Positions 12,720 to 19,394 of a stretch of DNA of 32,000 nt are shown in pieces; position 1 is the stretch's first letter, and each line of letters starts with the position of its first letter. The notes below the pieces were generated by a model that saw nothing but the letters and a program-made list of their open reading frames with translations, made no database searches and had not been told where the DNA came from. This stretch comes from Chlamydiales bacterium. Lineage in GTDB: Bacteria; Chlamydiota; Chlamydiia; Chlamydiales; SM23-39. The stretch spans positions 1,320,001 through 1,352,000 of the forward strand of contig OZ253438.1 in NCBI GenBank assembly GCA_965261025.1, read 5' to 3'. Position numbers and translations under genes: made by a program.

Positions 12720-15410
12720 TTAAAGATGATCATTAATGATTTTCGCTAAATTCTTCACATGTGGCTTTTTTAAAATTTCTGTGTGAGTAGTGTTTATTGT
12801 TTTGAAAATCAGATTGCCACCTATTAGAGCTTTCCAAAATTTTTTTTCCTTATGATAGTCAGAGTCGTTTTTTGAGAAAATACAAATAGCATCAATTTTG
12901 ATCGGTTTTGGTTTATAGGTTCTTAATGCTTCCAAATGATAAATTATTAGTTGAATAACGCTTTCTTGTTGGCTTGTAGTAAGATTTTCATAACCAAGGA
13001 TTTTTAACAATTTTTTGAACAATACTTCAGCGCAAGAAGTGTTAGCTACATTTTTCCCAGTTAGTAGTTGGATCAAGTTTTTTAAGTTCGTATTTTGGTG
13101 GGAGATAGGTAGTATCTTTCCTTGCGGATTTTTTCCTTCAATCAAGATAACTTTTTTTATTTTAATGGAGGAAGAAAGTAAATCCGAAGCCATTTGATAG
13201 GCTACAAAAGCTCCAAAGGAATATCCTAAGAGAACTAGCTGTGTTATTCCCTTCTCTTTTATTAGATTAATGTACCTTGTAGCGAGCTCATTTATATTAG
13301 TTTGATTACCCTGGTTATCGTTAGAGTTGCTATATATGCCATAGATAGGCCCATCAAATTGAATATGTTTAGCTAATTCTTGATAACATATAATCTGCCC
13401 TTCAATGGGATGTATTTGTACCAGTGCCGTTTTACCAGTGCCTTCTTTTATAAGGACCATCCCGTTATTTGACTCTTTTTTGAACCTATCTTGCTCATAG
13501 ATGAACATAGCCAGATCTTTAATAGTTGGATATTCCACATACTTTTCTAGAGATATTTCCAGATGGAATTGGGTCTGAATGGCGCTTATGTAGTGGACAA
13601 TACTCAGAGAGTCCAAGCTTATATCATTAAGCTGATCTGTTTCTTCAATATTCTGGTTCCCGAAGAGGTCTCTTGCAATTGTTAGTAGTTTGTGTTTGAT
13701 ATCATCATATTTTGGCAGGTGTAAGTTTGTTCTGGGGAGATCTTGAGCAGAAGCATCAATCCACGCCTTTTTTCTTTCAAAAGGATATGTTGGGAGAGGA
13801 ATTCTATTTTTACTTTGATTTTTATGCAGGCTTGTCCAATCTACAGACTCTCCTTTTAGCCACCTTTCACAAAAGTACCGCAATTTTTTATCAGTAATGG
13901 ATTTTAAAGTGGTTTTTTTCGTGGCAAGTAATTTACTTTTTAGTTCTTTAGCGGATAAAACTTGATACATTTCACATAGTTCAAGGTTCTTTCTTCCAAT
14001 CTGTAAAGTAAATGCTAGGTCCCTAATAGAAACCTTTGGGTTATTTGCAATGAAATCTGATAGATTTTTCTTTATTTTCTTCATTGAAGCAGTTGTTTTA
14101 GCCGACAGTAAGATTAGTTGAGGTTTTTTTGAAGAAGGCTGAATTTTTGAACTTGGAGCGGAAAACTCTTCTAGGGAGAGATGTGAGTTAGTCCCTCCTA
14201 TTCCAAAAGAACTAATAATAGCTCTTCTTGGGTGGTTTTGTTTTTTCCATGCTTGTAGAGAAGTTTTTATGCTAAAGGGAGTTTTTTCAATTCGAAGTTT
14301 TGGATTAGGCTTTTCAAAATTAATTTGTGGAGGGATCTTTTTGTAATATAACATCAGAATAACTTTTATTAACCCTGCTATTCCGGAAGATTCTAAAAGA
14401 TGCCCAATATTAGCTTTTAGGGATCCTATGATAGCGGAGCCCTTACCAGAGAAAATCTTGTTTAGTGTATCTATTTCTATGGGATCTCCTAAATTAGTGC
14501 CGGTTCCGTGAGCTTCGATATAGTCAATTGTTTCTACCGGGAATCTTGCAAAGTCTAACGAAGCTTTAATAACTTCTGCTTGGCCCCGGGCTCCTGGAGC
14601 CATGTAGTTTACCTTATTCTTGCCATCATTATTGGTTGCAAATCCTTTAATTACTGCATAAACCGTATCTCTATCTTCAATAGCATCTTCTAATCTTTTT
14701 ATTAGTACGACACCTCCGCCATTACCAGGAACTGTACCATCAGCTCTGATATCAAAAGGTCTACAACGCCCTGTAGGTGAATAAAGCATTCCTTCTATAC
14801 AGCGATAGCCTCTGTTTTGTGGCAACATAATCGAAAAACCGCCAGCAATTGCCATATCAGTTTGGTAAGAAAGTAGATCGGTACATGCCAGACATACTGA
14901 AACTAGGGAGGATGAGCAAGCTGTATATACAGAAATACTGGGTCCTGTCAAGTTCAGCTTGTAAGAAACACGTGTAGTCAAGAAATCTGGTCTATTTCCT
15001 AAGTCCAGAATATACCCCAGCTTTTCTTTCTCATTTTTTATGTTTGGCAGTAAATTATTGATTAGATAGGAATTAGCTCCGGAAGTTCCATAAACGCCAA
15101 TTCTTCCAGAGTATAAATCAGGGTTATAACCGGCTAGTTCTAGACATTGCCAACAAGCTTCTAGAAAAAATCTATGTTGCGGATCTATTCTTGCTGCTTC
15201 ATATGAGGATATTTCAAAAAATTGGGCATCAAAATATTCTACGTCACCAAGCACTCCAAAGGAGGATATCCATCCCGCTTCAGAATTTTGAGAAACAGTT
15301 ATAGATTCTGTTCCATTTATGAGGTTCTGCCAAAAATCGTTCACATTTTTGGCTCCGGGAAATTTTCCCGAAAATCCCACAACTGCTAAAGAAGTATTAT
15401 TTTCAGGCAT
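12720..15410 (-). CDS. type I polyketide synthase module, KS - (AT-less linker) - ACP - thioesterase
   Basis: The KS catalytic triad motifs are YTACSSS (Cys), EAHGTGT and NIGHL, plus DPQHRFFLE. The post-AT-type linker motif LPTYPFERKKAW is present. The carrier motif is ISLDSLSIV, and the TE has GYSFGAF (GxSxG) and a C-terminal THTEIL His. I start it at ATG 15410 (MPENNTSLAVVGFSGKFPGA). Confidence 0.9.
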   Translation of the reverse strand: MPENNTSLAVVGFSGKFPGAKNVNDFWQNLINGTESITVSQNSEAGWISSFGVLGDVEYFDAQFFEISSYEAARIDPQHRFFLEACWQCLELAGYNPDLYSGRIGVYGTSGANSYLINNLLPNIKNEKEKLGYILDLGNRPDFLTTRVSYKLNLTGPSISVYTACSSSLVSVCLACTDLLSYQTDMAIAGGFSIMLPQNRGYRCIEGMLYSPTGRCRPFDIRADGTVPGNGGGVVLIKRLEDAIEDRDTVYAVIKGFATNNDGKNKVNYMAPGARGQAEVIKASLDFARFPVETIDYIEAHGTGTNLGDPIEIDTLNKIFSGKGSAIIGSLKANIGHLLESSGIAGLIKVILMLYYKKIPPQINFEKPNPKLRIEKTPFSIKTSLQAWKKQNHPRRAIISSFGIGGTNSHLSLEEFSAPSSKIQPSSKKPQLILLSAKTTASMKKIKKNLSDFIANNPKVSIRDLAFTLQIGRKNLELCEMYQVLSAKELKSKLLATKKTTLKSITDKKLRYFCERWLKGESVDWTSLHKNQSKNRIPLPTYPFERKKAWIDASAQDLPRTNLHLPKYDDIKHKLLTIARDLFGNQNIEETDQLNDISLDSLSIVHYISAIQTQFHLEISLEKYVEYPTIKDLAMFIYEQDRFKKESNNGMVLIKEGTGKTALVQIHPIEGQIICYQELAKHIQFDGPIYGIYSNSNDNQGNQTNINELATRYINLIKEKGITQLVLLGYSFGAFVAYQMASDLLSSSIKIKKVILIEGKNPQGKILPISHQNTNLKNLIQLLTGKNVANTSCAEVLFKKLLKILGYENLTTSQQESVIQLIIYHLEALRTYKPKPIKIDAICIFSKNDSDYHKEKKFWKALIGGNLIFKTINTTHTEILKKPHVKNLAKIINDHL

Positions 15411-17576: not shown

Positions 17577-19394
17577 GTGAATGATATGGAAGATAGTGTC
17601 ATTCAGGTACTTGAAAGATGTGTCAATAAAATTCCAGATGAATGTGCTATTTTGTATAAAGACTACAGTATTTCTTACAAGGAGCTCTGGGAGAAATCTA
17701 ATCTAATATCATCCTATTTTGAAAAGAAAAATATTTATCGAAAAGTTATAGGGGTTGCCTTGCCAGGGGGAGCTAATCTAGTAACTTCTCTATTGGGGAT
17801 TCTGAAATCAAAAAATATTTATCTACCCCTTGATATGACTCTTCCGAAAGAAAGGCTGGAGTACATGATAGAAAACTCCTCCTGTGAAATTATAATTACG
17901 TCTTCCTGCTCAGCTCCTTCTATTGATTTCAATTTAGACATAATCTTTTTTGATCAGCTAGTTGTTACCCCTACTAATAAAAATATACTATCTGGATCAG
18001 ATAGAAGAAGGAAGGTAAAATCCGACGATTTGGCCTATATAATATATACCTCTGGTTCCACCGGAATTCCTAAAGGAGTCATGATAAGACATGGAGGTCT
18101 TGTCAACGCCATATTGGGCAGATTTTTATACTATCCTGGAAAGTTAAATTCTGTGTTATATGGATCTATCGGGTTTGACATGAGTTTAATGATTATTTTT
18201 CAGAGTCTTCTTTCAGGGGGAATACTTTTTATTTTAGAAGACTCAAGTCTTCTCAATCTAGATAGTTTATCTAGAGCAGTTCATCACCCTAAAATAAATA
18301 CCTTGCTATGTGTCCCTTCGTTATATGAATCACTTCTAGAATATTCAAAAAAAAGCCTTCCTTTGGAAAGAGTTATCCTAGCGGGAGAGGTTTTAACAAA
18401 ATCTTTGGCAAGAAAGCATAAAGTTAGGAACCCCTCAGTATCCTTATTCAATGAATACGGACCAACCGAATGTTCTATTTGTACAACTGTGGCTCGTATT
18501 TATGACATCGGAAATCCAGTAATTGATAGGATCCCTATTGGGAAGCCTATTCAAAATACAGCTGTTTACATACTAGATTCTCAATTAGAACCCGTGGCTT
18601 TGAGGCAAAAAGGGGAAATTTTTATTTCTGGGATGGGTGTTTCTCCTGGATATGTAGGTGATTCTAAAACAACAAAGAAGTGTTTTTTTAGGATATCTAT
18701 GGAAAATGTTATTGAAAGAGTTTATAGAACCGGTGACTATGGACTACTTAATGAAAACTCAGAAATTGAATTTCTTGGAAGAAAAGATGATCAGGTCAAA
18801 ATTAAAGGGTATCGAATAGAGATTGGTGAGATACGGGAGGCTCTTCTAGAATTTCCAGGAATAGTTCAAGTTGCTATTACCATTATCCAAGAGAAATCTA
18901 GGTATTTAGTAGCCTTTTATTCGTCAAAAAAACTTTTGAATGAAGATGCAATTAGAGGATTTTTACACAGGAAACTACCTTCTTATATGATCCCTCAGAT
19001 GCTGATTAGAATTAAGAAATTTCCATTAAATGCTAATGGAAAAATTGACAAAAATGCTTTGAAAAGAAAAGCAAAAAAGGGAACTTATTTTGCCTCTTCT
19101 AAAAAACAAGACGCTATTGAGAATTTATTGATTCAAATTTGGAAAGAGGTTTTACACAAATCTTACATAGTTCTGAACGACAATTTTTTTGACGTCGGGG
19201 GTGATTCTCTCTCTATTGTGAAGGTTCAAGCTCTCATTCGGCTTAAAATGGGACAAGAAATTTCTATTACTAAACTATTTGAATATCCTACAGTTTCCAA
19301 ACTTTCCAAATTTCTAAAGCAAGAAAAACAGGATCCTCAAAAAGGTGTGGTAAGGAGGCCTTCTTTTCTCAATTTTAGAAGAAGGAGTGTTTAA
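17577..19394 (+). CDS. stand-alone NRPS adenylation-thiolation (A-PCP) didomain protein, no condensation domain
   Basis: The core motifs are A3 YIIYTSGSTGIPKGV, A4 FDMS, A5 NEYGPTE, A7 YRTGD, A8 GRKDDQVKIKGYRIE and A10 NGKIDK, with PCP FFDVGGDSLSIV. The start is GTG 17577 or ATG 17586. Confidence 0.9.
   Translation: MNDMEDSVIQVLERCVNKIPDECAILYKDYSISYKELWEKSNLISSYFEKKNIYRKVIGVALPGGANLVTSLLGILKSKNIYLPLDMTLPKERLEYMIENSSCEIIITSSCSAPSIDFNLDIIFFDQLVVTPTNKNILSGSDRRRKVKSDDLAYIIYTSGSTGIPKGVMIRHGGLVNAILGRFLYYPGKLNSVLYGSIGFDMSLMIIFQSLLSGGILFILEDSSLLNLDSLSRAVHHPKINTLLCVPSLYESLLEYSKKSLPLERVILAGEVLTKSLARKHKVRNPSVSLFNEYGPTECSICTTVARIYDIGNPVIDRIPIGKPIQNTAVYILDSQLEPVALRQKGEIFISGMGVSPGYVGDSKTTKKCFFRISMENVIERVYRTGDYGLLNENSEIEFLGRKDDQVKIKGYRIEIGEIREALLEFPGIVQVAITIIQEKSRYLVAFYSSKKLLNEDAIRGFLHRKLPSYMIPQMLIRIKKFPLNANGKIDKNALKRKAKKGTYFASSKKQDAIENLLIQIWKEVLHKSYIVLNDNFFDVGGDSLSIVKVQALIRLKMGQEISITKLFEYPTVSKLSKFLKQEKQDPQKGVVRRPSFLNFRRRSV

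Follow-up and report, generated by a model that had tools for sequence, protein, structure and literature searches.

Gene content of the locus

The 32-kb stretch of Chlamydiales DNA analysed here, referred to throughout as the window, carries at positions 12720-19394 a small hybrid locus in which a nonribosomal peptide synthetase (NRPS) didomain is paired with a polyketide synthase (PKS). Pfam and NCBIfam models were scanned against the open reading frames (ORFs) of the window, whose coordinates matched those of a preliminary description exactly, and four uninterrupted genes were recovered: on the minus strand, a PKS with ketosynthase (KS), acyl carrier protein (ACP) and thioesterase (TE) domains and an S-adenosylmethionine (SAM) methyltransferase (MT); on the plus strand, a major facilitator superfamily (MFS) transporter and a protein comprising adenylation (A) and peptidyl carrier protein (PCP) domains. 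All four are free of internal stops and frameshifts, their lengths agree with those of their homologues, and their domain matches are far above chance level. The PKS ORF (12720-15467) matches Pfam ketoacyl-synt (3e-58), Ketoacyl-synt_C (8e-37) and three linker families typed as KS-acyltransferase (KS-AT), with PP-binding (2e-08) and Thioesterase (2e-17) in its C-terminal part. Class I SAM methyltransferase families are matched by the second ORF (15474-16259; 1e-15 to 1e-17), MFS_1 by the third (16359-17567; 9e-20), and AMP-binding (8e-65) and PP-binding (5e-13) by the fourth (17577-19394), so that the architecture first proposed, MFS with A-PCP and methyltransferase with KS-ACP-TE, is borne out at the given coordinates.

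Database proteins of 100% identity (P0003, P0243 and P0123) set the true gene starts. The type I PKS gene (12720-15410, minus strand; identical to P0003) encodes 896 residues arranged as KS, KS-AT linker remnant, ACP and TE, and the MT gene (15474-16241, minus strand) encodes 255; the NRPS loading didomain A-PCP (17586-19394, plus strand) has 602. The MFS gene (16362-17567, plus strand), whose start is probable, specifies a putative exporter of about 401 residues. An AT-rich divergent spacer of 120 bp (16242-16361) lies between the MT-KS and MFS-A-PCP units, in keeping with the control region of about 100 bp described earlier, and within it an AAGGAG motif is placed about 7 nt 5' of the MFS ATG. 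A consensus scan for promoters and terminators returned no more sites in the real sequence than in shuffled sequence.

Alignment of the window PKS with 15 full-length relatives placed its catalytic residues in all three functional domains. The KS domain (14313-15389) contains Cys165 (14916-14918), His301 (14508-14510) and His337 (14400-14402), the ACP (13506-13691) has its carrier residue Ser601 at 13608-13610, and the TE (12726-13424) contains Ser731 within a GYSFG motif (13218-13220) and His876 (12783-12785). These six residues are invariant across the 16 sequences, so the KS Cys-His-His triad and, together with the PCP serine described below, both carrier serines on which the original interpretation depended are intact. 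Compared with the Ser-Asp-His triad of PF00975, the TE keeps its serine and histidine and has Glu758 (13137-13139) at the acid site. Over its full length the protein is 37-43% identical to a family of KS-ACP-TE proteins of 880-940 residues, and its KS is 61% identical to that of P0004 and about 52% identical to the rest of the family. The 80 best matches to the KS in species-representative genomes include 60 in which an A-PCP or carrier domain ends no more than 600 bp upstream on the same strand, and the solved KSs nearest to it belong to hybrid NRPS/PKS and trans-AT systems. These relationships indicate that the window KS takes NRPS-bound substrates.

Between KS and ACP lies a linker remnant (13923-14309) matching the KAsynt_C_assoc, CurL-like and RhiE-like linker families, and no Acyl_transf_1 (AT) domain was found by Pfam in the window PKS, a lack that weakens the logic of the preliminary description. 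The wider PKS family displays a graded loss of this domain, from a full AT through an AT-sized insert and a shorter remnant to none; listed in order, its members include L090 (13033-16740), P0033, P0007/P0010/P0019/P0020, P0024/P0031/P0038/P0056, the window protein (12720-15410) and L091 (9819-12242). Full AT domains with GHSxG and a malonyl-type HAFH or LAFH motif occur in L090, in P0033 and in distant cyanobacterial PKSs with a similar KS, relatives of 1150-1200 residues have AT-sized inserts devoid of the active-site motif, and the AT-free proteins, the window PKS among them, measure 807-940 residues. The malonyl-type motifs of these relatives, combined with the loss of the AT in the window, point to malonate as the extender unit, loaded in trans. 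The window ACP is presumably malonylated by FabD; in MucE, a PKS of similar architecture, a malonyl transferase acting as a separate protein loaded the malonyl group in vitro (PMC10161427).

The A domain (approximately 17613-19043) exceeds the amino-acid adenylation model TIGR01733 cut-off (335.2 bits against 317.4) as well as matching Pfam AMP-binding, and is followed by the PCP (19125-19316), whose carrier Ser541 lies in a GGDSL motif at 19206-19208. We read the specificity code by alignment to GrsA PheA (PDB 1AMU, residues 184-527), checked residue by residue. All core A motifs are intact and both Asp235 and Lys517 (GrsA numbering) are present, establishing an amino acid as the predicted class of substrate. 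The code, DMMCIAEICK, is closest to that for Phe, with which it shares six of ten positions, and the exact substrate is not predictable from it. The absence of a condensation (C) domain, noted at the outset, held up: PF00668 had no Pfam match in the A-PCP or in the ORFs scanned alongside it at 10.8-12.7 kb and 20.0-20.4 kb, and precomputed Pfam annotation contains none in the A-PCP didomain proteins of the related loci described below.

The MT (METHYLTRANSFERASE) finds its best NCBIfam matches in BioC (74.8 bits, cut-off 184.95) and Tam (70.7 bits, cut-off 297), and among solved structures the nearest to it are insect juvenile-hormone acid O-methyltransferases (JHAMT; 1e-16). A Gln/His pair in JHAMT anchors and deprotonates the acid, and the enzyme loses activity when either one is mutated (PMC8526772). 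The N-terminal Gln of JHAMT and the His-Trp of its LHW motif align with Gln16 and His107-Trp108 of the window enzyme. Because the MT is JHAMT/BioC/Tam-like and has the catalytic Gln/His pair, its sequence favours O-methylation of an acidic oxygen, whether of a carboxylate or of a tetramate enol, over N-methylation. The enzyme had initially been called Tam-like and allowed either O- or N-methylation; the class assignment stands, in the better-fitting form JHAMT/BioC/Tam-like, and N-methylation has become the less favoured option. The three reference enzymes all methylate carboxylates, although their substrates (farnesoic acid, malonyl-ACP and trans-aconitate, respectively) are unrelated. A BioC-like methylation of the malonyl extender was considered and rejected on chemical grounds, as it would block decarboxylative condensation. 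A single-sequence AlphaFold model of the MT reached a mean predicted local distance difference test (pLDDT) score of 38.

A recurring cassette

The four genes belong to a set that recurs in about 13 other loci and can be written (MT)-MFS-[A-PCP]-[KS-(AT)-ACP-TE]-(Lipocalin_5)-(Sfp-type phosphopantetheinyl transferase, PPTase). MFS, A-PCP and KS-ACP-TE genes are adjacent in 12 further loci (L082/L083, L084, L085/L086, L087, L088, L089, L090, L091, L095, L096, L099 and L107/L108), and an MT is present in at least eight loci, counting the short contig L100. The preliminary description had proposed looking for homologues in chlamydial genomes, and the cassette does recur in several chlamydial metagenome-assembled genomes (MAGs). 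L082/L083 derives from a 'Chlamydiae bacterium' MAG with the locus tag S4CHLAM7, as does the identically named P0023 (S4CHLAM7_07810), and L084 from a Parachlamydiales MAG; L107/L108 places the cassette on a 1.45-Mb contig. Chlamydiia and Rhabdochlamydiaceae MAGs supply further named members of the family, and a single member is from a Halobacteriovoraceae MAG. The window itself has 37% GC and lies on a 1.42-Mb contig, which together with the named Chlamydiota relatives fits a chlamydial origin.

Several lines of evidence indicate that these genes travel together. The best or only matches of the window MT, MFS, A-PCP and PKS each fall in these cassettes, and all four window genes show reciprocal similarity to the cassettes of L082-L091. 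The window MFS, which has weak Tet(A)-type efflux similarity, is 45-51% identical by alignment to the MFS proteins of L087 and L084 (42-46% by tblastn) and 50-53% identical to those of L090 and L091. As an independent test, metagenome contigs were searched with the MFS alone and only contigs long enough to judge were counted: all five MFS relatives at 35% identity or above (L090, L091, L095, L096 and L099) adjoin A-PCP and KS genes, and MFS proteins more distant than these have no such neighbours. Rosetta-stone support comes from six proteins in which A-PCP and KS-ACP-TE are fused (P0005, P0006, P0015, P0016, P0040 and P0055), and in L089 the two are joined in a single protein of 1469 residues. 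The persistence of the same gene content despite varying order and orientation fits a functional unit. The window MT is of the same family as the cassette MTs of other loci, and the alignments cover all or most of it at 27-34% identity; a word-indexed homologue search with the MT returned only the MT itself, and its relatives were recovered from the neighbour genes of related loci. A profile search of genome contigs with the KS-ACP-TE alignment, in which generic KS motifs dominated, returned no cassette members.

The A-domain codes divide the family into three types. Type a, DMM[CST][IV][GA]EICK, comprises the window, L087, L090 and L091, which include the nearest cassettes to the window; type b, D[VIPA]L[CS][SF][AGT]E[IC]GK, comprises L082, L084, L088, L089, L095, L096 and L099; and type c, DA[LI]CDG[IVM][VI]GK, is found in L085 and in one Rhabdochlamydiaceae protein. 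The Gln/His pair of the MT is also kept in the type a enzymes of L090 and L091, and in type b MTs the His is replaced by Leu or Ile. Several type b cassettes carry an aminomutase, which in L082 (2369-3979) matches the phenylalanine 2,3-aminomutase model TIGR04475 with 805 bits against a cut-off of 800, and aminomutase or related genes occur in L098 (3-398), L099 (5597-7042) and L107 (729-2372, 6296-6616 and 19219-20868). Part of the cassette family thus probably works on beta-phenylalanine-type units and may give six-membered lactams. The same cassettes contain extra methyltransferases, up to half a dozen of them, L107 having at least six methyltransferase genes together with an additional AMP-binding enzyme, and this gene content suggests a beta-Phe-derived, heavily methylated type b product. 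The Lipocalin_5 protein, a common cassette member of about 140 residues that has no sequence match in the PDB and could act as a cyclase, a carrier or an immunity factor, is encoded in L082 (10909-11331), L084 (10675-11091), L087 (6831-7262), L089 (8746-9156), L107 (9397-9807), L095, L096 and L099.

The window copy is rearranged relative to this pattern. Almost every relative has its KS gene immediately after A-PCP, overlapping it or fused to it, whereas the KS gene of the window is inverted and lies beyond the MT. The slot 3' of A-PCP, where relatives have the KS gene, is occupied by an 85-residue fragment of an IS4/5-family insertion sequence (IS) transposase (19545-19802, minus strand), which matches DUF4096 only (4.5e-12) and has no DDE domain. 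This fragment is likely a scar of the rearrangement. A repeat search of the window returned only AT-rich chance matches and no inversion-flanking repeats. IS genes are present in the L085 cassette too, in the form of DUF4096 and a DDE transposase.

Proposed chemistry and its alternatives

We consider that the locus encodes a working assembly line joining one amino acid to one malonate, and assign this reading a probability of about three in four. In the proposed mechanism the A domain would adenylate the amino acid and load it onto its own PCP, and the ACP of the AT-less PKS would receive malonyl in trans, presumably from FabD of fatty-acid synthesis. The KS would then take the aminoacyl group from the PCP and condense it decarboxylatively with malonyl-ACP to give a 4-amino-3-oxoacyl-S-ACP, a step that we infer from the architecture and from the MucD/MucE precedent. 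Attack of the free amine on the thioester, with the help of the TE, would release a 5-substituted pyrrolidine-2,4-dione, that is, a tetramic acid. The JHAMT-like MT may methylate the acidic enol oxygen, whether the chain is still on the ACP or already released, and so form a 4-methoxy-3-pyrrolin-2-one; methylation of a carboxylate is a less likely alternative. Export of the product would fall to the MFS protein. On this analysis we take a 5-substituted tetramic acid, or the corresponding 4-O-methyl ether, to be the most likely product, and give this outcome even odds.

The closest functional precedent lies in the tetramate pathways of Streptococcus mutans and Limosilactobacillus reuteri, in which one NRPS module feeds an AT-less KS-ACP-TE (MucD/MucE and RtcN/RtcK) and which were cited correctly when the locus was first described. 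MucD (C-A-PCP) and MucE (KS-ACP-TE) form a tetramate by Claisen condensation with trans-loaded malonyl-ACP, followed by TE-mediated lactam closure (PMC10161427), and the muc and rtc clusters, like the window, encode an MFS exporter (PMC9112991). In MucD the amino acid is N-acylated by a starter C domain, whereas the window has no C domain; the scanned window ORFs contain no MucABC (PhlABC-like) 3-acetylation genes, MucF acylase or TetR regulators, and a JHAMT-like methyltransferase is present instead. A comparison of names showed neither MucE nor RtcK among the best 120 database matches of the window PKS. The window system would work like MucD/MucE and stands outside that group by architecture, given the absence of the C domain and the 3-acetylation genes. 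A second parallel is althiomycin biosynthesis (the last modules of Alb5/AlmB, with Alb3/AlmC), in which an amino-acid module, a malonyl PKS module, a TE and a discrete O-methyltransferase are combined (PMC3445576). There the amino-acid module is one for Gly, and the O-methyltransferase has been proposed to work in trans while the chain is being built, the outcome being a 4-methoxy-3-pyrrolin-2-one (PMC3445576), although the althiomycin nitrogen bears a long peptide and the six-module megasynthase has its own AT, whereas the window encodes a free-standing two-protein line.

A number of observations weigh against this explanation. The TE acid position is Glu758 in the window and Asp in all 15 relatives, the motif around the ACP Ser601 reads SLDSL rather than the GGDSL of most compared relatives, and the PKS as a whole is the most divergent member of the alignment, deviating at 18 of 158 otherwise invariant positions as against 1-9 in the others. 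The Sfp-type PPTase (AASDHPPT_N plus ACPS) and Lipocalin_5 genes, companions of the cassette in most relatives, were not found in the 32-kb window by tblastn, even at E = 5, nor were degraded remnants of either, so the PPTase must be encoded outside the window. We know of no canonical A-domain code that equals DMMCIAEICK. The MT falls far under the BioC and Tam equivalog cut-offs, so that class resemblance is the guide to its presumed substrate. MucE rejects a free aminoacyl thioester (PMC10161427), leaving the C-less version of the chemistry with no biochemical precedent, and the literature searched reports no product for any member of the cassette family.

Among the alternatives, the one that survives best retains the assembly line and changes its release: the TE would hydrolyse the thioester, and the resulting 4-amino-3-oxo acid would either lose CO2 to give an alpha-aminoketone, and from it a pyrazine dimer, or be trapped by the MT as a methyl ester. 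We regard this outcome as unlikely, though it is the most credible of the alternatives. The nearest characterised relatives of the MT (JHAMT, BioC and Tam) all act on true carboxylates (PMC8526772), and the TE is a generic type I enzyme with weak similarity to any solved TE, both of which are consistent with hydrolysis. Lactam release is, however, chemically favoured: ring closure should come easily to a gamma-amino-beta-keto thioester or methyl ester whose primary amine is free, in line with the closure catalysed by the MucE TE (PMC10161427), and the tetramate enol itself offers an acidic oxygen suited to such an MT.

Somewhat less probable again is decay, with the locus left as a non-functional relic of the cassette while the genome shrinks. 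The broken-up operon, whose A-PCP|KS junction holds an IS fragment, the missing PPTase and lipocalin genes and the accumulation of substitutions in the PKS, the TE Asp-to-Glu change included, could all be read in this way. So could the situation of P0004 (L001, 3846-6512), the closest KS-ACP-TE relative, which has no A-PCP, MFS or MT neighbour in the 16.5 kb examined of its 18.8-kb contig, evidence that splitting or partial loss of the cassette does occur. Set against these points are the four full-length ORFs, the retention of every nucleophile and general base, and the mostly conservative nature of the changes at the 18 deviant positions. Other alpha/beta hydrolases work with Ser-Glu-His triads, and the divergent MT|MFS layout of the window is also found in L090, gene order being fluid across clearly intact cassettes.

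The weakest alternative, a beta- or otherwise modified amino acid building block leading to a six-membered piperidine-2,4-dione or dihydropyridone, draws on the phenylalanine 2,3-aminomutase of type b cassettes (L082, with related genes in L098, L099 and L107) and on two unusual residues of the family code, Cys278 (invariant) and Glu322 (nearly so), but is improbable for the window, since no aminomutase was found in its 32 kb or seen in the sequence covered for L087, L090 and L091, which share its code type, and type a codes lie 4-5 positions from type b. Asp235, from which the loading of an alpha-amino acid was first proposed, is present in the window; part of the family may use beta-amino acids.

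Genomic surroundings and significance

A conserved neighbour of the cassette is a gene for an RHS/YD-repeat protein (20418-25040, minus strand), which lies 1 kb from A-PCP and is not a biosynthetic part. It aligns end to end with the RHS protein that follows the cassette in L087 (33% identity over 1536 residues), and orthologous RHS genes stand beside the cassette in the window and in L084 (11981-17287), L087 (8984-13951), L088 (12241-17613) and L090 (858-6290). The shells of these proteins align in all five loci; the C-terminal tips and the small downstream ORFs, which in the window occupies 20002-20412 (minus strand), differ. The window tip (approximately residues 1370-1540) has no Pfam match. 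This linkage may be synteny retained by descent, or the region may function as an 'antagonism island'. Another O-methyltransferase-like gene, unrelated to the cassette MT (Methyltransf_3/Methyltransf_24; 25304-26008, minus strand) is located just past the start of the RHS gene, and in L088 a paralogue of the cassette-type methyltransferase likewise comes after the RHS unit.

The two genes downstream of the PKS form a separate unit. An ORF of 325 residues downstream of the KS gene (11716-12693, minus strand) was considered as a fifth member and rejected, as it is absent from all cassette loci. Its product looks secreted and has no Pfam match, and the ORF overlaps the start of an FKBP (Mip-like) gene, the pair spanning 11099-12693; its family has 834 representatives at 50% clustering, some of them fused to an FKBP_C domain, in agreement with its FKBP neighbour here. 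It is a putative, uncharacterised partner of FKBP isomerases. Further away, a tRNA-Ser(GGA) gene (3460-3549) is followed directly by a gene with Schlafen AlbA_2 and HATPase_c_4 (RecG-C-like) domains (region 3460-5044, plus strand), which may be an insertion beside the tRNA.

The expectation that assembly lines are rare in Chlamydiae, voiced in the preliminary description, is outdated. Surveys with antiSMASH report that biosynthetic gene clusters (BGCs) occur widely among environmental Chlamydiae, only the Chlamydiaceae and Parilichlamydiaceae having none (PMC9666466), a wide occurrence in environmental members is also reported in PMC13229535, and the present cassette occurs in several chlamydial MAGs. 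Dharamshi et al. 2022 (PMC9666466) list antiSMASH-predicted clusters from environmental Chlamydiae, typed 'NRPS-like' or PKS/NRPS, that represent the same phylum-level phenomenon and are given as cluster types, not as chemistry. The locus is known in kind, resembling both Muc/Rtc logic and reported chlamydial BGCs, and is not surprising in that respect. In the literature searched we found no published product, architecture or mechanism for this cassette, and no chlamydial cluster for which a small molecule had been characterised, the surveys listing types only (PMC9666466).

The distribution of the cassette would fit an ancient mobile unit shared mainly among environmental Chlamydiota, and because an RHS toxin gene often accompanies it, its role may be antagonistic or directed at the host. 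We advance only tentatively, as a proposal more doubtful than not, that the region is a 'weapon or signal island', in which a C-less two-protein NRPS-PKS makes a free-NH O-methyl tetramate inside the eukaryotic host cell, genetically linked to an RHS polymorphic toxin and directed against co-infecting microbes or the host, with sister versions that would make a beta-Phe-derived dihydropyridone.

The cassette is small (four genes, about 6.7 kb), conserved across several chlamydial lineages and simple enough for heterologous expression. For enzymology it would test whether a KS-ACP-TE can handle a free aminoacyl thioester, which MucE cannot, and its PKS family displays the stepwise loss of a cis-AT. 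Were the island proposal correct, the phylum would gain its first secondary metabolite of defined chemistry, assembled by a new minimal tetramate route that dispenses with N-acylation. More broadly, the cassette offers an entry point to what intracellular chlamydiae secrete and why, for example the protection of the host against co-infecting bacteria.

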